Positions 1-5,682 of a stretch of DNA of 5,682 nucleotides are shown here, in pieces. Where the stretch lies: the IMG/VR virus record IMGVR_UViG_2663762945_000009, one strand, 5' to 3'. Position 1 is the first letter of the stretch, and every line of letters starts with the position of its first letter. Made by a program: the position numbers and the translations under genes. Under the pieces are notes generated by a model. That model was not told the DNA's origin. It did not search any database and was given only the letters and a program-made list of their open reading frames with translations. The stretch comes from a virus (Duplodnaviria > Heunggongvirae > Uroviricota > Caudoviricetes).

Positions 1-60
1 GCTAAAAGAACCGGAAAAAACAAGGTGATAATTCATTCAAAATAAACACCTTTTTAAAAT

Positions 61-107
61 ACAGCCCCAATAAACTGCAGAATATTATCCCATATAATAT
101 CCTGCAG
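61..107 (-). terminator. Putative rho-independent terminator downstream of the tfa remnant
   Basis: At 75-107, ctgcagaatattatcccatataatatcctgcag gives a ~14-bp stem (one G-U position) with a 5-nt loop. On the - strand it is followed by TTTATT. Stem is AT-rich, so strength is uncertain. Confidence 0.35.
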
Positions 108-118
108 TTCGTAATGCA

Positions 119-214
119 CTATTCGATAATGGGTACTGTTGGCCATTCAATATCCGGTGCAGTTGTTGTATTAACACGGTTCAGCAACACCCGATACTTC
201 TTCCAGGCTTCCAG
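119..214 (-). pseudogene. tfa: Tail fibre assembly protein, C-terminal 31-codon remnant (lambda Tfa-like)
   Basis: The - strand frame encodes [31 protein letters not shown] then a stop at 119-121. This matches the C-terminal motif of lambda Tfa as I recall it, and the same EAW..Y..L..RVDT..P.WP motif closes the intact Tfa at 1515-2042; the convergent copy at 2071-2604 ends differently (KLTEWMLYAQKVESTDTSGLPVTFPEQPE). No N-terminal part is present. Confidence 0.6.
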
Positions 215-444
215 CACCAGCACGACAAGATGCCGCATACAGTGACCCAGTCAGTCCAGTTTCCAGACAACCAGTGCGTCACCTTTTTGAAGGCGCTTTA
301 AAGCACGTTTAATCCAGGTCGGCCTGTCCTTATTCCGCTTAATTTATCTTCAAATATTTGTTCACATCCTGCACAAACAAGAGCGTTTCGTTGCAGGTCT
401 GTATTCTGGTCATTTGTTGATACCCTTACATAGCCAATCAGCAC
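215..444 (-). pseudogene. pin: Serine DNA invertase (Pin/Gin/Hin/Cin family), N-terminal fragment with frameshift and in-frame TGA
   Basis: From GTG at 442-444 the - strand encodes MLIGYVRVSTNDQNTDLQRNALVCAGCEQIFEDKLSGIRTGRPGL (catalytic-serine motif YVRVSTNDQ). A -1 shift near 308-312 then gives KRALKRLQKGDALVVWKLD, an in-frame TGA sits at 251-253, and [12 protein letters not shown] follows. A GGGAGA Shine-Dalgarno lies 6 nt upstream of the GTG. The C-terminal helix-turn-helix domain is absent. Confidence 0.7.
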
Positions 445-498
445 GCTGAATCTCCCGTCCAAAAGCACAAATCATGCCATGCAGGCCAGAAACCGCCA

Positions 499-524
499 TT
501 ATCTAAAACCTCGGTTTACAGGAA
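499..524. other. gix/pix/hix-type inversion crossover site (26 bp, imperfect dyad)
   Basis: TTATCTAAAACCTCGGTTTACAGGAA has the same half-site layout as Gin/Hin sites (TTATC..AAACC / GGTTT..GGAA). It sits between the invertase start and the 5' end of the tail-fibre variable ORF, as gixR does in Mu. Confidence 0.6.
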
Positions 525-548
525 ACGGTAAACAGGGCCAGGAACGCC

Positions 549-1511
549 GTGCAAAAGAATGGCGATACCTTGTCCGGTGGGCTTACTTTTGAAAACGACT
601 CAATCCTTGCCTGGATTAGAAATACTGACTGGGCAAAGATTGGTTTTAAAAATAATGCCGACAGCGACACTGATTCATACATGTGGTTTGAAACAGGCGA
701 CAACGGCAATGAATATTTCAAATGGAGAAGCCGCCAGAGCACCACAACAAAAGACCTGATGACTCTTAAATGGGATGCTTTGTCTGTCCTTGTTAAAGCC
801 CTTTTCAGCAGTGAAGTAAAAATATCGACAGTCAATGCACTGAGGATATTTAATTCATCTTTTGGTGCTATTTTTCGTCGTTCTGAAGAATGCCTGCATA
901 TCATCCCTACACGAGAGAATGAGGGAGAAAATGGTGATATAGGGCCACTACGCCCCTTTACGCTTAATCTCAGAACTGGTCGGATAAGCATGGGGCATGG
1001 TCTTGATGTTACAGGGGATATATTTGCAAACCGTTTTGCAATTAACAGTAGTACCGGCATGTGGATTCATATGCGTGACCAGAATGTTATTTTGGGACGC
1101 AATGCGGTATCCACCGATGGTGCGCAGGCATTACTTCGTCAGGACCACGCTGATCGCAAATTTATGATTGGTGGACTGGGGAATAAGCAATTTGGCATCT
1201 ACATGATTAATAACTCAAGGACAGCCAATGGCACCGATGGTCAGGCGTACATGGACAACAATGGCAACTGGCTTTGCGGTGCGCAAGTTATTCCCGGCAA
1301 TTATGGTAATTTTGACTCACGTTATGTGAGAGATGTCCGACTTGGTACACGTGTTGTTCAGACTATGCAAAAAGGCGTGATGTATGAGAAATCAGGTCAT
1401 GCAATTACGGGGCTTGGCATTATCGGTGCAGTTGATGGCGATGATCCGGCAGTATTCAGACCAATACAAAAATACATCAATGGCACATGGTATAACGTCG
1501 TACAGGTGTAA
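549..1511 (+). CDS. stf: Side tail fibre protein, variable C-terminal (receptor-binding) portion
   Basis: 320-aa ORF with phage tail-fibre motifs (WFETGDNGNEYF; C-terminal RPIQKYINGTWYNV). The frame is open from 507, directly after the gix site. An AGGA lies 5 nt before GTG 549. Stop codon is 3 nt before the tfa start. No constant N-terminal fibre shaft is present upstream. Confidence 0.75.
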   Translation: MQKNGDTLSGGLTFENDSILAWIRNTDWAKIGFKNNADSDTDSYMWFETGDNGNEYFKWRSRQSTTTKDLMTLKWDALSVLVKALFSSEVKISTVNALRIFNSSFGAIFRRSEECLHIIPTRENEGENGDIGPLRPFTLNLRTGRISMGHGLDVTGDIFANRFAINSSTGMWIHMRDQNVILGRNAVSTDGAQALLRQDHADRKFMIGGLGNKQFGIYMINNSRTANGTDGQAYMDNNGNWLCGAQVIPGNYGNFDSRYVRDVRLGTRVVQTMQKGVMYEKSGHAITGLGIIGAVDGDDPAVFRPIQKYINGTWYNVVQV

Positions 1512-1514
1512 TTT

Positions 1515-2042
1515 ATGCAGCATTTAAAAAATATTAAGTCTGGAAATCCAAAAACAAAAGAACAATATCAGCTAACAAAGAATTTTGATGTTATCTGGTT
1601 ATGGTCCGAAGACGGAAAAAACTGGTATGAGGAAGTGAAAAACTTTCAGCCAGACACAATAAAGATTGTTTACGATGCAAATAATATTATTGTCGCCATC
1701 ACCAAAGATGCCTCCACGCTTAACCCTGAAGGTTATAGCGTCGTTGAGGTTCCAGATATTACAGCCAACCGCCGCGCTGATGATTCCGGTAAGTGGATGT
1801 TTAGGGACGGAGCTGTGGTTAAACGGATTTATACGGCAGACGAGCAACAACAACAGGCCGAATCACAAAAGGCCGCATTGCTTTCCGAAGCTGAATCAGT
1901 CATCCAACCGCTGGAACGCGCTGTCAGGCTGAATATGGCAACAGACGAGGAACGCACACGACTGGAAGCATGGGAACGCTACAGTGTTCTGGTCAGCCGT
2001 GTGGATACGGCAAATCCTGAATGGCCACAAAAACCAGAGTAA
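1515..2042 (+). CDS. tfa: Tail fibre assembly protein (Tfa; Mu U / e14 TfaE-like chaperone)
   Basis: 175-aa ORF starting [22 protein letters not shown] and ending [31 protein letters not shown] Shine-Dalgarno 6 nt upstream. Tightly coupled to the preceding stf. Confidence 0.85.
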
Positions 2043-2070
2043 AAATTAAGGCCCGATAGCGGGCCTTCTC
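2043..2070. terminator. Bidirectional hairpin terminator between the convergent tfa genes
   Basis: Stem aaggcccg / cgggcctt with loop atag at 2048-2067. On the - strand it is followed by AATTTTTA; the + strand tail is weaker. Confidence 0.45.
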
Positions 2071-2604
2071 TCATTCTGGTTGTTCGGGAAACGTTACTGG
2101 CAGGCCGGAAGTGTCTGTAGATTCGACTTTCTGCGCATAGAGCATCCACTCGGTTAATTTTTGTTTATTCTCGTCGGAAATGATGCCCAGCCGTAGCTGT
2201 GAGTCCCATAGCTGGGTTTTATCCCTGACAAGTTGCAACAGGCTTTGCTTTTCATTTTCCGCTTGTTGCCTCTGCTCTTCCTCGGTATAAGTTCGCTTTA
2301 TCACTACGCCATCTTTGAACATCCATTTCCCCGAAATATCAGCCCGGCGATTTGCTGTAATATCAGGTAATTCAACGACGCTTGCACCCTCTGGATTAAT
2401 TGCTGAAACATCCTTTTCAATACAAATAATAACGCCGTTATGGTCATAGACCATTTTCAAAGTGTCTGGCTGGAAATTCTTTTGTTCCTCATACCAGTTT
2501 TTTCCATCATCTGAATAAAGCCATTTGATGTTAAATTGCTTTGTTAGCTGGTATTGCTCTTTTGTTTTAGGGTTGCCAGCAGTAATGTTTTTTAAGTGCA
2601 TCAT
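2071..2604 (-). CDS. tfa: Tail fibre assembly protein (second, inverted copy; Mu U'-like)
   Basis: 177-aa [25 protein letters not shown], a paralogue of the + strand Tfa with a diverged C-terminal half. GGGGAG Shine-Dalgarno inside the 3' end of the upstream stf fragment. Confidence 0.85.
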   Translation of the reverse strand: MMHLKNITAGNPKTKEQYQLTKQFNIKWLYSDDGKNWYEEQKNFQPDTLKMVYDHNGVIICIEKDVSAINPEGASVVELPDITANRRADISGKWMFKDGVVIKRTYTEEEQRQQAENEKQSLLQLVRDKTQLWDSQLRLGIISDENKQKLTEWMLYAQKVESTDTSGLPVTFPEQPE

Positions 2605-2606
2605 CG

Positions 2607-2840
2607 TTAAATACTCCCCGCGTTATACCACGTCCCATTAATGCAATACTGAATTGGCCTTGCCTGAGTTGTATCAATTAATTCATCACGGTTTCCGTTA
2701 ACTGAACCCGTAACGACATAACCTGACCTGTCAGACCAGCCGGGGCCTTTCCATGTCTGAACAGATGACAGACCGCCAAGGCGAATACCTGTAATAAACC
2801 TTGAGTTACATTCTGCCTGCGTATATGCACCAACATCTCG
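2607..2840 (-). pseudogene. stf: Side tail fibre protein, second variable tip, truncated to its C-terminal ~75 codons
   Basis: The - strand encodes ...GAYTQAECNSRFITGIRLGGLSSVQTWKGPGWSDRSGYVVTGSVNGNRDELIDTTQARPIQYCINGTWYNAGSI, alignable to the last ~75 aa of the 549-1511 ORF (shared RLG...RPIQ.Y/CINGTWYN). The 5' portion and its expected gix site are replaced by lambda-like sequence. Confidence 0.6.
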
Positions 2841-2888
2841 CCTTTGAAAAAATCCAGATATCCGCCGGAATGGTGCAGAAATGTCGGT

Positions 2889-3164
2889 ATACGGATAACG
2901 GCTACTCCGTGTTTGAGCAGTCACTGCTGCGGTATATCGCTGCCGGGCTGGGTGTCTCGTATGAGCAGCTTTCCCGGAATTACGCCCAGATGAGCTACTC
3001 CACGGCACGGGCCAGTGCGAACGAGTCGTGGGCGTACTTTATGGGGCGGCGAAAATTCGTCGCATCCCGTCAGGCGAGCCAGATGTTTCTGTGCTGGCTG
3101 GAAGAGGCCATCGTTCGCCGCGTGGTGACGTTACCTTCAAAAGCGCGCTTCAGTTTTCAGGAAG
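2889..3164 (+). pseudogene. B: Portal protein B, internal fragment (lambda gpB-like)
   Basis: Encodes TDNGYSVFEQSLLRYIAAGLGVSYEQLSRNYAQMSYSTARASANESWAYFMGRRKFVASRQASQMFLCWLEEAIVRRVVTLPSKARFSFQE, which I recognise as an internal stretch of lambda B. It ends abruptly at 3164. Confidence 0.8.
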
Positions 3165-3688
3165 GCGGCACTGGCAAGCAGCTGACCTGCACTGCAGTTC
3201 ATGTCGTTGGCCAGCGCCCATACCGGTTTTATGTCACGCACACGGGCGATGATGTCAGCGCAGTCAAATGCCCCCGCCACCATCCCGCCGGGCGTGTCCA
3301 TATCGAGCAGAATGCCGTCCACCATCGGATCGCTGGCAGCCTGTTGCAGACGGGCGATAATGCCGTTGTAACCGGTCATCCCCGAGTACGGCTGCAGCGC
3401 CCGCGTCCGGCTGACCAGCGTGCCGGACACCGGCAGCACGGCGATGCCGTTCATGACCTGATAACTGCGGGCCTGTCGTGGTCCGTCATCATCACCGGAT
3501 AATGCCAGCGTCGCGGGTGCCTCCTGGGCAGTCAGGCTGTCGCCGGACACCGCATCCGTCAGGCGGCTGATCCCAAGCTGGCCTGCAAGCGCACAAAAGA
3601 AAACCCGCGCATAGGCGGGTTCAAGCATCAGCGGCTCATTAAAAGCCATGCTGGCAATATGCGGGAGATTACGCAGCTCTGCTGTCAC
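3165..3688 (-). pseudogene. C: Head protease/scaffold protein C (S49 ClpP-like), N-terminal ~173 codons
   Basis: From GTG at 3686-3688 the - strand encodes VTAELRNLPHIASMAFNEPLMLEPAYARVFF...MNCSAGQLLASAA, the lambda gpC N-terminus as I recall it. It overlaps the B stop by ~20 nt as in lambda. Reading continues into unrelated sequence after 3165. Confidence 0.8.
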
Positions 3689-3958
3689 TCTTCTCCTCCT
3701 CTGTTGATTGTCGCAGCCCGGATTCAAATGCTGCAGCCGCCCAGGCGGGCGGTTTAAGACCGGCTGCGCGGCGCTCCATCGTTTCACGGACCTGCTGGGC
3801 AAAAATTTCCTGATAGTCGTCACCGCGTTTCGCGCACTCTTTCTCGTAGGTGCTCAGTCCGGCTTCTATCAGCATCACCGCTTCCTGAACTTCTTTCAGA
3901 CCATCGATGGCCATACGACCGGAGCCTATCCAGTCGCAGTTCCCCCAGGCACTGCGGG
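3669..3958 (-). pseudogene. B: Portal protein B, C-terminal ~95 codons
   Basis: The - strand encodes ARSAWGNCDWIGSGRMAIDGLKEVQEAVMLIEAGLSTYEKECAKRGDDYQEIFAQQVRETMERRAAGLKPPAWAAAAFESGLRQSTEEEKSDSRAA then a stop. This is the direct continuation of the + strand B fragment that ends at 3164, but on the opposite strand. Confidence 0.8.
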
Positions 3959-4154
3959 CTCCCGGCGTCTGGTCACGCAGACCGCCCGGACAGGCTCCAT
4001 CGGCGTCATGATGGCTCACAGTAATTACGGTGCTGCGCTGGAGAAACAGGGTGTGGAAATCACTCTGATTTACAGCGGCAGCCATAAGGTGGATGGCAAC
4101 CCCTACAGCCATCTTCCGGATGACGTCCGGGAGACACTGCAGTCCCGGATGGAC
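3959..4154 (+). pseudogene. C: Protein C, internal fragment continuing from the - strand C fragment
   Basis: Encodes SRRLVTQTARTGSIGVMMAHSNYGAALEKQGVEITLIYSGSHKVDGNPYSHLPDDVRETLQSRMDAT, the residues that follow ...QLLASAA in lambda C. Strand is opposite to the C N-terminal fragment. Confidence 0.75.
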
Positions 4155-4470
4155 GCAACCAGATAAGGGTGTTGCGCTGCTTATGCTCTATGAAGTAGGC
4201 ATAAACACCCAGCAGCATTTTGGAATAACCGACACGGGCAGACTTCACCACATTCACCTCACGGATGTAGTCGCTGCCCATCGCATTCATGATGGCCCGC
4301 TGAAAGGGCAGTGTTTCCCAGCGCCCTTCCTGGTATGCGGATTCTTTCGGGAGATAGTAATTGGCATCCGCCCATTCAACGGCGGTCTGTGGCTCCGGCC
4401 TGAACAGTGAGCGAAGCCCGGCGCGGACAAAATGCCGCAGCCTGTTAACCTGACTGTTCGATATATTCAC
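4155..4470 (-). pseudogene. A: Terminase large subunit A, N-terminal ~105 codons only
   Basis: From GTG at 4468-4470 the - strand encodes MNISNSQVNRLRHFVRAGLRSLFRPEPQTAVEWADANYYLPKESAYQEGRWETLPFQRAIMNAMGSDYIREVNVVKSARVGYSKMLLGVYAYFIEHKQRNTLIWL. It overlaps the Nu1 stop as in lambda. Homology ends at ~4155; this N-terminal piece is the Nu1-interacting region, and the ATPase and nuclease domains are missing. Confidence 0.85.
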
Positions 4471-4990
4471 TCAGCAACCCCGGTATCAGTTCATCCAGCG
4501 CGGCTGCTTTGTTCATGGCTTTGATGATATCCCGTTTCAGGAAATCAACATGTCGGTTTTCCAGTTCCGGAAAACGCCGCTGCACCGACAGGGGGATCCC
4601 GTCGAGAATACTGGCAATTTCACCTGCGATCCGCGACAGCACGAAAGTACAGAATGCGGTTTCCACCACTTCAGCTGAGTCTCTGGCATTCTTCAGTTCC
4701 TGTGCGTCGGCCTGCGCACGCGTAAGTCGATGGCGTTCGTACTCAATAGTCCCTGGCTGGAGATCTGCCTCGCTGGCCTGGCGCAGTTCTTCAACCTCCC
4801 GGCGCAGCTTTTCGTTCTCAATTTCAGCATCCCTTTCGGCATACCATTTTATAACGGCGGCAGAGTCATAAAGCACCTCATTACCCTTGCCACCGCCTCG
4901 CAGAACGGGCATTCCCTGTTCCTGCCAGTTCTGAATGGTACGGATACTCGCACCGAAAATGTCAGCCAGCTGCTTTTTGTTGACTTCCAT
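4445..4990 (-). CDS. Nu1: Terminase small subunit Nu1, full length
   Basis: 181-aa ORF MEVNKKQLADIFGASIRTIQNWQEQGMPVLRGGGKGNEVLYD...SEYIEQSG with intact start and stop. It matches lambda Nu1 as I recall it. It lies immediately downstream (on the - strand) of cosB. Confidence 0.9.
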   Translation of the reverse strand: MEVNKKQLADIFGASIRTIQNWQEQGMPVLRGGGKGNEVLYDSAAVIKWYAERDAEIENEKLRREVEELRQASEADLQPGTIEYERHRLTRAQADAQELKNARDSAEVVETAFCTFVLSRIAGEIASILDGIPLSVQRRFPELENRHVDFLKRDIIKAMNKAAALDELIPGLLSEYIEQSG

Positions 4991-5167
4991 TGTTCATTCC
5001 ACGGCCAAAAACAGAGAAAGGAAACGACAAAGGCCCAAAAGTTCGTTTTCAGCACCTGTCGTTTCCTTTCTTTTCAGGGGGTATTTTAAATAAAAACATT
5101 AAGTTACGACGAAGAAGAACGGAAACGCCTTAAACCGGAAAATTTTCATAAATAGCGAAAACCCGCG
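4991..5167 (-). promoter_or_regulatory. cosB-like terminase-binding region (R-site repeats)
   Basis: Three R-element-like repeats of the cgtttcc(t/g)ttc(t) type at ~5012-5033, ~5054-5071 and ~5110-5126, between cosN and the Nu1 start. This is the layout of lambda cosB. Confidence 0.6.
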
Positions 5168-5179
5168 AGGTCGCCGCCC
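5168..5179. other. cosN cohesive-end sequence (12 nt)
   Basis: aggtcgccgccc is the reverse complement of the lambda 12-nt cohesive end GGGCGGCGACCT. Sequence beyond 5180 resembles the lambda right end (cosQ side), so the two genome ends are joined here as in a prophage or concatemer. Confidence 0.7.
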
Positions 5180-5378
5180 CGTAACCTGTCGGATCGCCGG
5201 AAAGGACCCGAAAAATGATAATGATTATCATCTGCATGTCACAACGTGCATCTACGCCATCAAACCACGTCAAATAATCAATTATGACGCAGGTATCGTA
5301 TTAATTGATCTGCATCAACTTAACGTAAAAACAACTTCAGACAATACAAATCAGCGACACTGAATACGGGACAACCTC

Positions 5379-5612
5379 ATGTCAACGAAGAACAGAACCC
5401 GCAGAACAACAACCCGCAACATCCGCTTTCCTAACCAAATGATTGAACAAATTAACATCGCTCTTGATCAAAAAGGGTCCGGGAATTTCTCAGCCTGGGT
5501 CATTGAAGCCTGCCGCCGGAGACTGTGCTCAGAAAAAAGAGTTTCTCCTGAAGCAAACAAAGAAAAGAGTGACATTACTGAATTGCTCAGAAAACAGATC
5601 AGACCAGATTGA
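5379..5612 (+). CDS. Hypothetical small basic protein (77 aa), possible ribbon-helix-helix DNA-binding fold
   Basis: ORF MSTKNRTRRTTTRNIRFPNQMIEQINIALDQKGSGNFSAWVIEACRRRL... has a basic N-terminus, then a short beta-like segment (NIRFP) and two helix-like segments. Only a weak GGGA Shine-Dalgarno ~7 nt upstream. It lies in sequence resembling the lambda right-end region; whether it is expressed is unknown. Confidence 0.35.
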   Translation: MSTKNRTRRTTTRNIRFPNQMIEQINIALDQKGSGNFSAWVIEACRRRLCSEKRVSPEANKEKSDITELLRKQIRPD

Positions 5613-5682
5613 AGCAATTTAGATAATCGTGCAGACTACGCTCCCTCATATCACATGGAAGGTACTACAATGGCTCAGGTTG

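Follow-up and report, generated by a model that had tools for sequence, protein, structure and literature searches.

A decayed tail-fibre inversion switch of the Mu G/Shigella boydii B kind with a single remaining crossover site

Introduction

The closest described counterparts of the locus reported here are the B segment of Shigella boydii with its invertase gene pinB (Tominaga et al. 1991, D00660), the G segment of Mu, the C segment of P1 and P7, and the P segment of e14. In Mu, and also in D108 and SfMu, the order is Sv-U convergent with U'-S'v, followed by a crossover site and the invertase gene. The C segment, inverted by Cin, follows a like inversion logic; it is larger, at 4.2 kb (PMC12529663), its carrier is a plasmid prophage, and in the P1 record it is 93% identical to the pinB locus. 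The P segment of e14, with its invertase PinE, is 1.8 kb long and actively inverting, and inversion there joins one or the other C-terminus to a constant part (PMC4272514, PMC12529663). Invertases of other prophages can also act on this segment, as PinQ and PinR do in trans, making StfE2 (Kirigo et al. 2025, PMC12529663).

The DNA that we analysed, hereafter the window, is a whole stretch of 5,682 nucleotides from a viral record (IMGVR_UViG_2663762945_000009), and the feature within it is a decayed tail-fibre inversion switch of this known kind, i.e., a case of ordinary decay and not a new system. Its region 215–2840 is a degraded copy of the Mu G/S. boydii B invertible tail-fibre segment, with 85% nucleotide identity to Mu itself, aligned over 499–2839, and 91–94% to the G/C segments of D108, SfMu, P1, P7 and other phages (~91% over S/U/U'/S' for the C segment of P1/P7). 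The module is common to Mu, D108, SfMu, P1, P7 and lambdoid prophages, at 85–94% nucleotide identity.

Comparison with the described segments

The gene order in the window is that of Mu G, and its tips and chaperones belong to the same Mu-type family as those of the S. boydii B segment. Unlike the pinB locus, the window copy has an invertase gene of 77 codons fused to a tfa fragment, and both bixL and the Stf shaft are deleted. At the protein level the identities to Mu were 94% (U), 97% (U') and 98.7% (S' tip; residues 2–77 of tip B against S' residues 253–328), and just 70% for tip A against Mu Sv (S residues 169–504, with no internal stop), where the match is a mosaic in two blocks that include the extreme C-terminus. 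A Mu-like prophage with an intact gin (L006) was 94% identical over window positions 255–778. The window further differs from Mu in its carrier, which is lambda-like and has a lambda-type Stf shaft in its ancestry and not the Mu S constant part, in its dead invertase, and in the missing second site.

The likeness to e14 is chiefly one of arrangement, e14 being likewise defective and lambda-like, with a fragment of Stf next to its invertase gene. Over its first 45 residues the pin remnant has 82% identity to PinE, and codons 65–77 are pinE-like at the nucleotide level; BlastP identified no match between the tips and e14 StfE/StfP or the Rac StfR tip, and just weak partial matches between the chaperones and e14 TfaP and Rac TfaR. 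An earlier note on this DNA, made from the letters, had called the switch Mu-G/e14-P-type; the Mu G part of this name holds, whereas the e14 part is an analogy only.

Prophage setting

The carrier is very probably a defective lambda-like prophage, seen here at its bio-proximal (right) end, in the attLambda site of E. coli or of a closely related host. Relatives that are 99.5–99.8% identical to window positions 1–2837 carry a full-length Stf with bixL, and their gene order is bioA-ybhB-[diguanylate cyclase]-pin remnant ... int-ybhC, which places this prophage between ybhB/bio and ybhC. A diguanylate cyclase cargo gene lies to the left of the cassette, followed by the chromosomal ybhB and bioA, and packaging and lysis genes lie to the right. 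These late genes include Nu1, identified by Pfam (E = 9e-101); positions 4155–5682 are collinear with phage PhiR49_1, and 60/60 bases at 5120–5179 match what we take to be the lambda left-end cos sequence.

Table 1. Features of the decayed segment, with positions in the window.
Feature	Position	Strand	Remarks
tfaR/tfaQ-like tail-fibre assembly gene, 3' fragment	119..216	-	~30 codons; stop TAG 121-119
Gin/PinB-type serine invertase remnant	215..444	-	codons 1-77 of ~193
Putative Fis-dependent recombinational enhancer (sis homologue)	360..423		inside 5' end of invertase remnant
Inverted-repeat arm enclosing bixR, 42 bp	495..536		aligns inverted to bixL arm, L001 15540-15582
Crossover site bixR, 26 bp	499-524		core TC/GA at 511-512
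Tip A (Mu Sv homologue), complete variable C-terminal part	507..1511	+	silent invertase-proximal position
Chaperone A (Mu U homologue), intact, 175 aa	1515..2042	+	94.3% to Mu U; Caudo_TAP E = 1e-37
Hairpin, GC-rich, terminator-like	2048..2067		between convergent chaperone genes
Chaperone B (Mu U' homologue), intact, 177 aa	2071..2604	-	97.2% to Mu U'; Caudo_TAP E = 2e-36
Tip B (Mu S'v homologue), last 77 codons of alternative tip	2607..2840	-	cut at 5' side
Deletion junction	2835..2838		lost: rest of tip B, bixL, Stf shaft, lom, most of J
Scrambled late-gene debris	2838..4160		coordinates against L003

Crossover site and invertase remnant

A search that tolerated up to 3 mismatches placed the crossover site, TTATCTAAAACCTCGGTTTACAGGAA, at a single position in the window, where 200 shuffles gave an expectation of 0. 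Its reverse complement agrees in all 26 bases with the bixR published for the B segment of S. boydii, and the partner site found in near-identical E. coli prophages is the published bixL, with a GA core in both (a comparison at site level, with the sites listed in PMC3241671). The site is 1 base different from Mu gix and mismatches 1 of the 17 specified positions of the Din consensus used here (TTC....AAACC NA GGTTT....GAA); in contrast, the cix sites of P1/P7 have an AA core and other half-sites, and the pix sites of e14 are also unlike it. While two inverted sites are present in six relatives (L001, L002, L004, L007, L011 and L012), no second Din-type site was found in the 5.7-kb window, either with up to 5 mismatches or by a Din-consensus scan. 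Two candidates, at 2826–2851 and 2954–2979, were rejected as they mismatch 6 of the 17 consensus positions, and by our own binomial estimate ~7 such matches are expected by chance in the window.

Next to the crossover site there is a remnant in place of an intact serine invertase of ~190 residues with catalytic domain, helix E and C-terminal helix-turn-helix. Bases 444–255 correspond to Mu gin nt 1–191 (96.9% identity), and homology to e14 pinE extends to nt 231, i.e., codon 77; the match to the Pfam Resolvase N-terminal domain covered just profile positions 2–54 of 145, and once corrected for its frameshift the remnant spans residues 2–64 of 193 in the Gin structures 3UJ3 and 4M6F. The frameshift is a 1-bp deletion at 307/308 that is specific to the window (the extra T was present in 6/6 relatives compared), and it is accompanied by an in-frame TGA at 253–251. 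Position 215/216 is the point where the remnant passes, without a change of direction, into a tfaR-like 3' end; bases 216–137 of the latter share 90% identity with nt 488–567 of K-12 tfaR, and this fragment also had 100% matches to genes annotated as tfaQ. The truncated pin allele in relatives, annotated in RefSeq as WP_001378636.1, is fused to the same tfa fragment, and the equivalent tfa stretch is labelled there as 'tail fiber assembly protein, missing N-terminus'.

The pin remnant with these lesions is catalytically dead. Its 5' end may retain the recombinational enhancer: the segment listed in Table 1, placed on the basis of PMC3798978 and of its sequence identity to Mu gin, is base-for-base identical to the latter, and the centres of two Fis-like G-N13-C 15-mers lie at distances of 95.5 and 144.5 bp from that of the crossover site.

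Tips and chaperones

Judged by their sequences, both tips and both chaperones are homologues of the Mu S/U/S'/U' proteins. The frame of tip A is open for 334 codons and, from its first start codon (GTG 549), gives an ORF of 320 residues that matches the Pfam Gp34_trimer domain and has no constant N-terminus; RefSeq calls the equivalent ORF a pseudogene for this missing N-terminus. Both chaperones are full length with matches to Pfam Caudo_TAP, and in the hairpin between their genes 6 of the 8 base pairs of the stem are G-C, a T-rich tail coming next on the minus strand. Residues 2–77 of tip B are 100% identical to residues 870–945 of the 945-residue Stf of strain C2, and intact relatives express a full-length Stf that ends in tip B. 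A constant fibre N-terminus joined to two convergent tips with their chaperones, as present in L001 and L011, is thus not what the window has, its shaft being absent and its tip B cut to the last 77 codons.

A crude promoter scan found no promoter-like site upstream of tip A. The motif AGGA precedes GTG 549 by 5 nt. Transcription could also reach tip A by read-through from the diguanylate cyclase gene, located upstream on the same strand; no terminator-like site was found on the plus strand between that gene and tip A.

The anatomy given in the earlier note stands, with every element that it listed lying where it had been placed or a few bases away. This holds for a unique gix-type site at 499–524 with no second one in the window, a pin broken by frameshift, in-frame TGA and fusion to foreign sequence, the convergent layout of stf-tip plus tfa against tfa' plus stf'-tip, the intact 320-residue tip in the silent, invertase-proximal position, a second tip that it had put at ~75 codons, and the lack of a constant Stf N-terminus.

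Inversion in relatives and the loss of bixL

In three relatives (L001, L002 and L011) a 3.09-kb segment lies between inverted copies of bixR and bixL, with bixL inside the full-length Stf gene. Between L001 and L011 a stretch of 3,087 bp is cleanly inverted, with the 42-bp repeats as its limits and the outer half-sites staying with the flanks, and a junction of Stf shaft, bixL and tip A that we built in silico had 100% full-length matches in real genomes. The two orientations of the shaft-side junction were found in 126 and 356 genomes, tip A being joined via bixL to the Stf shaft in the 356. On the side of the pin remnant the two orientations were found in 97 and 58 complete genomes, with the same truncated pin allele in both, and the flanks of orientation-A and orientation-B genomes were identical (0 differences in 1,800 bp); inversion therefore continued after pin had been truncated. 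No single strain was found assembled in both orientations when the orientation-A matches listed were compared with the full orientation-B list.

The pin-less relatives were probably flipped by an invertase acting in trans. Among the 5,426 complete E. coli genomes, 1,179 carried full-length pinE-like genes and 203 gin-like ones, counted over all 5,426 together and not per flipped genome; cross-complementation among Gin, Cin, Pin and Hin has long been described, and such servicing fits it. The action of PinQ and PinR on e14 is a precedent for flipping across prophages, although in contrast to that case the window copy cannot flip, and a defence function and expression are features of StfE2.

The earlier note had described the switch as frozen by loss of its invertase, its second gix site and the constant fibre shaft. 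For the invertase this does not hold, as the same dead pin occurs in both orientations, and our comparisons support bixL loss as the decisive lesion in the window. Similarity to intact relatives ends at 2837, the Stf constant region being absent; window positions 1–2837 match L001 12001–14838 and positions 2835–2860 match L001 19213–19238, inside gene J, the two matches overlapping by 3 bp at the junction. On these alignments bixL and the shaft were lost at 2837/2838, and because a single crossover site is left, local inversion is impossible in the window. The cassette is indeed locked, as had been claimed, with bixL loss as the cause, and that it is a Mu-G-type switch no longer invertible locally agrees with the ancestral layout seen in near-identical prophages.

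A neighbouring invertase pseudogene alone is accordingly no ground for calling a tail-fibre switch "locked"; the lock on a given copy is the loss of one of its two 26-bp sites, and where pin-less cassettes at attLambda occur in both orientations the resident invertases of other prophages probably service them. The value of the both-orientations result lies in annotation and in work on phase variation, while the window itself matters little: what it holds is a relic of the textbook switch of phage host range, left in a prophage from which nearly all structural genes are gone as well.

Proposed history and alternatives

By far the best explanation, and one that we hold with high confidence, is that the locus is a decayed Mu G/S. 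boydii B segment that once sat in the side tail-fibre gene of an attLambda prophage. The ancestral order would have been Stf shaft, bixL, [tip B and chaperone U'] convergent with [chaperone U and tip A], bixR and pin. By analogy with the Gin and Hin literature, a Gin/Pin-family serine invertase would have swapped strands at the GA core of both 26-bp sites, assisted by Fis at the enhancer that this gene carries within its own 5' end, and the 3.09-kb flip would have put either tip A or tip B in frame with the shaft, to be expressed with its own chaperone. Three lesions would then have followed: an old illegitimate deletion that joined pin codon 77 to the tfaR-like 3' end, a fusion common to hundreds of E. 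coli prophages; the 1-bp deletion in the pin remnant, specific to the window; and a deletion with rearrangement at 2837/2838, again specific to the window, by which bixL would have been lost together with the shaft and almost every late gene. As the tips lack a shaft or a known promoter (the latter on a crude scan), the cassette would now be a silent fossil.

A combined reading, in which the invertase-less cassettes of relatives are flipped from elsewhere and the window copy is kept because tip A and its chaperone are transcribed by read-through from the diguanylate cyclase cargo gene, with a receptor-masking anti-phage role like that of StfE2 or as a donor for incoming phages, appears very improbable. 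The switch might still be active, with some other invertase of the Din family in the cell, supplied by e14, by an element like Mu or P1 or by a further prophage, acting in trans on bixR and a distant partner site, which predicts inversions or fusions larger than the window. For Din invertases to act, both sites must lie inverted within a single supercoiled domain, and recombination drops with distance; the 5.7-kb window has no second site, the partner site sits in the Stf gene in all relatives examined, i.e., in the part deleted here, and no site is expected in the flanks, which are the cargo gene, ybhB and bioA on the left and packaging and lysis genes on the right. We therefore regard continued activity as very unlikely, even though dead-pin relatives occur in both orientations, pinE-like and gin-like genes are found at the frequencies given above, the part of pin with the putative enhancer is retained and identical to Mu gin, and the P segment of e14 can be flipped in trans by PinQ, an invertase of Qin (PMC12529663).

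We give similarly little credence to co-option by the host, by which tip A and its chaperone would be made from GTG 549, perhaps through diguanylate cyclase read-through, and, like the e14 StfE2 chimera, would mask a receptor or exclude superinfecting phages, or would be retained as a module that incoming phages could acquire by recombination. Stops are absent from tip A and both chaperones, next to a decayed pin remnant and decayed late genes, AGGA precedes the GTG, the plus strand has no terminator-like site after the diguanylate cyclase gene, the module is shared by unrelated phages at 85–94% nucleotide identity, and there is precedent for an invertase-proximal Stf fragment that acts against phage T2 (PMC12529663). 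However, the cassette has just 1–3 SNPs in 2,313 bp relative to its relatives, a divergence at which selection is undetectable, so that its intactness is explained by recency; the crude scan found no promoter-like site, and RefSeq calls the equivalent ORF a pseudogene. The silent tip of Mu, too, is not known to be expressed. That the cassette could serve as a recombination donor to another fibre gene, as the earlier note had suggested, is plausible.

Rearranged late genes

To the right of the deletion junction in our preferred history, the debris consists of 26 bp of J and 29 bp of inverted terminase A, and a 1.27-kb portal/protease block inserted inverted, the central 798 bp of which is re-inverted. 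The junctions show overlaps of 2–6 bp, typical of illegitimate recombination. An ENA metagenome contig (L009) is identical to window positions 3552–4624 (1,073 bp, 100% identity) and spans two of the odd junctions; this independent assembly support applies to that stretch, and the 2837/2838 junction lies outside it. The arrangement of the window had no match in the 5,426 complete E. coli genomes, in species-representative genomes or in JGI metagenomes, and exact-match scans for the 2837/2838 junction and for the pin frameshift allele found none in species-representative genomes and JGI metagenomes. That the truncation and the scramble after 2837 are assembly artefacts, the true locus having an intact Stf and bixL, is suggested by this absence and by the presence of pieces as small as 26 and 29 bp, but is exceedingly unlikely given the metagenome contig, the junction overlaps, and the different, independent decay of the same prophage in four relatives (L002, L004, L005 and L010).

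Cassette anatomy and the crossover site

The tail-fibre cassette, at the right end of a defective lambda-like prophage, comprises two alternative tail-fibre C-termini (tips A and B), each with a tail-fibre assembly chaperone, and when we mapped its features in the window the coordinates of an earlier note all proved correct to within a few bases.

Features of the cassette and of the rearranged stretch that follows it
Feature	Position	Strand or orientation	Remarks
Tail-fibre assembly gene (tfa), 3' fragment	216-119	minus	
Serine invertase (pin) remnant	444-215	minus	first 77 codons; co-directional fusion with the tfa fragment
Crossover site	499-524		26 bp
Tip A	507-1511	plus	open frame
Chaperone A gene	1515-2042	plus	
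Hairpin	2048-2067		GC-rich
Chaperone B gene	2604-2071	minus	
Tip B	2840-2607	minus	last 77 codons
Gene J fragment	first after 2837		26 bp
Terminase A fragment	after the gene J fragment	inverted	29 bp
Portal/protease block	next	inserted inverted	1.27 kb (4885-6154 in L003, the reference for these coordinates)
Centre of portal/protease block		flipped back	798 bp (L003 5085-5882); breakpoints exactly reciprocal
Terminase A N-terminus, Nu1, cos, ynfO-like gene	4155 onward	collinear	

The 26-mer at 499-524 is present once where no copy is expected by chance; neither a search allowing up to five mismatches nor a consensus scan found another Din-type site in the window, which bears out the earlier claim that a second gix site is missing from it. 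The reverse complement of the site, TTCCTGTAAACC GA GGTTTTAGATAA, is identical letter for letter to bixR from the Shigella boydii invertible B segment, and Mu gixL/gixR are one base away (PMC3241671, Table 3). The Stf gene of E. coli strain C2 (L001), which carries the same prophage, contains TTATCGAATACCTCGGTTTACAGGAA in inverted orientation, the reverse complement of which is the published bixL.

Phage Mu is 85% identical in nucleotide sequence to window 499-2839, and for the cassette the identity is 91-94% both with D108 and SfMu (G segments) and with P1 and P7 (C segments). Chaperone A is 94% identical to Mu U, chaperone B 97% to Mu U', and the truncated tip B 98.7% to the terminal part of Mu S'. 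For tip A and Mu S residues 169-504 the figure is 70%, the differences falling in two blocks that include the extreme C-terminus. A BlastP comparison of both tips with e14 StfE/StfP and the Rac StfR tip gave no match, and the chaperones matched e14 TfaP and Rac TfaR only weakly and in part. Of the earlier designation "Mu-G / e14-P-type", the Mu G half therefore holds and the e14 P half is an analogy; judged by these similarities, the cassette's relatives are the G segment of Mu and the S. boydii B segment, not e14 P. A Mu-like prophage of E. coli 22KM0354 (NZ_CP151071.1, 885163-895687) carries com, an undamaged gin (197 aa) and a G-type segment that is complete, and is 94% identical to window 255-778; its invertase-proximal site is bixR and its distal site a different one, TTATCCAAAACGTCGGTTTACAGGAA. 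This prophage is likely the type of donor from which the lambda-like prophage acquired its cassette.

The invertase remnant

The pin gene is broken in each of the ways the earlier note described, by a frameshift (a 1-bp deletion at 307/308), an in-frame TGA at codon 65 and a fusion to tfa sequence at 215/216. The fusion and the TGA are common to all relatives examined, in which RefSeq labels the fused remnant a 64-aa 'recombinase family protein' (WP_001378636.1), while the 1-bp deletion is found in the window and not in the relatives; the remnant is old, with this one lesion private to the window. With the frameshift corrected it corresponds to just residues 2-64 of the 193 in the Gin structures, and its sequence is 96.9% identical to Mu gin nt 1-191 and pinE-like from there to nt 231. 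The stretch expected to hold a Fis-dependent enhancer is kept, base for base the same as in Mu gin, and this putative enhancer has Fis-like 15-mers whose centres lie 95.5 and 144.5 bp away from the crossover.

Prophages that are more diverged and lie elsewhere on the chromosome, e.g., that of EC958 near trp, also have the fusion (95.7-97.6% identity). The joining of pin codon 77 to tfa (window 215-216; 5988-6314 in L007, a relative with both crossover sites) is found at several chromosomal sites with differing downstream context and is sometimes paired with different tip cassettes, as in EC958; among lambda-like prophages, this dead-invertase module has become widespread.

Inversion in relatives with the same dead invertase

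Many E. coli genomes have, at the attLambda site between ybhB/bioA and ybhC, a lambda-like prophage whose right end is 99.5-99.8% identical to window 1-2837. In strain C2 the truncated tip B is continued as a full Stf gene (945 aa) with lom and J ahead of it, and as this full Stf carries an inverted bixL, the ancestral element was a canonical 3.09-kb invertible segment. Between the tail-fibre end and ybhB the prophage has a cargo gene for a 443-aa sensor diguanylate cyclase (window 1-45; L001 10714-12045), transcribed toward the silent tip A, and no terminator-like site was found between the two.

The earlier note held that the switch had been frozen by loss of its invertase together with a second gix site and the constant fibre shaft. 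Loss of the invertase does not freeze it: relatives with the same dead pin occur in both orientations. On the pin-remnant side, 97 genomes matched (at least 80% coverage) a 700-bp probe running from the tfa fragment through the pin remnant and bixR into tip A; when tip B followed this left half instead, 58 genomes matched. On the shaft side, the junction of shaft, bixL and tip B was found in 126 genomes, and that of shaft, bixL and tip A, which we built in silico, in 356 genomes overall, with 100% identity matches in real genomes. In strain BS15R-A (L011), with the same locus and the same dead pin, the full-length Stf ends in tip A and tip B is silent; structurally it departs from C2 in one respect, an inversion of 3,087 bp that ends cleanly in the 42-bp repeats, the outer half-sites each remaining with their own flank. 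The 1,800 bp to the left of bixR show no differences between L001 and L005, with tip A beside the pin remnant, and L010, with tip B there, while other genomes of the two orientations (L002, L011) have 11-17 differences in this stretch. Both orientations beside the same dead pin and identical flanks mean that inversion happened after pin was truncated.

The simplest cause would be an invertase encoded elsewhere that acts on these dead-pin relatives. Gin, Cin, Pin and Hin have long been known to cross-complement. The e14 P segment is inverted in trans by PinQ of Qin (PMC12529663). Over all genomes, full-length pinE-like genes are present in 1,179 of 5,426 and gin-like genes in 203 of 5,426.

The 498 bp to the left of bixR in the window have five private SNPs and a 1-bp deletion compared with the closest relatives, against 1-3 SNPs in the 2,313 bp of the segment. 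The same contrast is seen when relatives are compared with each other, with 11-17 SNPs per 1,800 bp of flank and 1-5 per 3,027 bp of segment; the segment may have been homogenised by recombination between prophages.

Loss of bixL and rearrangement of the adjoining region

Similarity to L001-type relatives ends at 2837. As bixL is gone, local inversion of the window copy is impossible, and as the shaft is gone, neither tip can join a fibre. The earlier reading of a frozen Mu-G switch thus stands in that the cassette is locked, but the decisive lesion is the lost crossover site rather than the lost invertase; the system is of a known kind, of which the window sequence is a decayed member. A promoter scan of the window found no promoter-like site before tip A. 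Tip A might conceivably have been exapted as a receptor-masking protein, or the cassette might serve as a recombination donor, though both proposals are unsupported. Tip A and both chaperones are intact, but segment 525-2837 (2,313 bp) has just 1-3 SNPs relative to its closest relatives, so this intactness is uninformative about selection.

The nested rearrangement at 2838-4160 has junction overlaps of 2-6 bp and no IS elements, and looks less like the product of IS activity than of template switching or a series of illegitimate inversions. Its exact arrangement was absent from the complete E. coli genomes searched; however, a metagenome contig identical (100%) to window 3552-4624 crosses two of the junctions, making an artefact unlikely, the match covering that interval and not 2837/2838. 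Although the large terminase gene is reduced to its first ~100 codons, stretch 4445-5179 still has an intact Nu1 small terminase gene (181 aa, Pfam E = 9e-101), and adjoining it 5120-5179 (minus strand) exactly matches, over 60 bp, the lambda left cohesive-end sequence. In this the stretch is reminiscent of the nohA/nohD remnants in Qin and DLP12 of K-12. Just beyond cos is a 77-aa ORF of the YlcI/YnfO family (5379-5612), conserved in relatives and in PhiR49_1, a phage whose annotation calls it a hypothetical protein.
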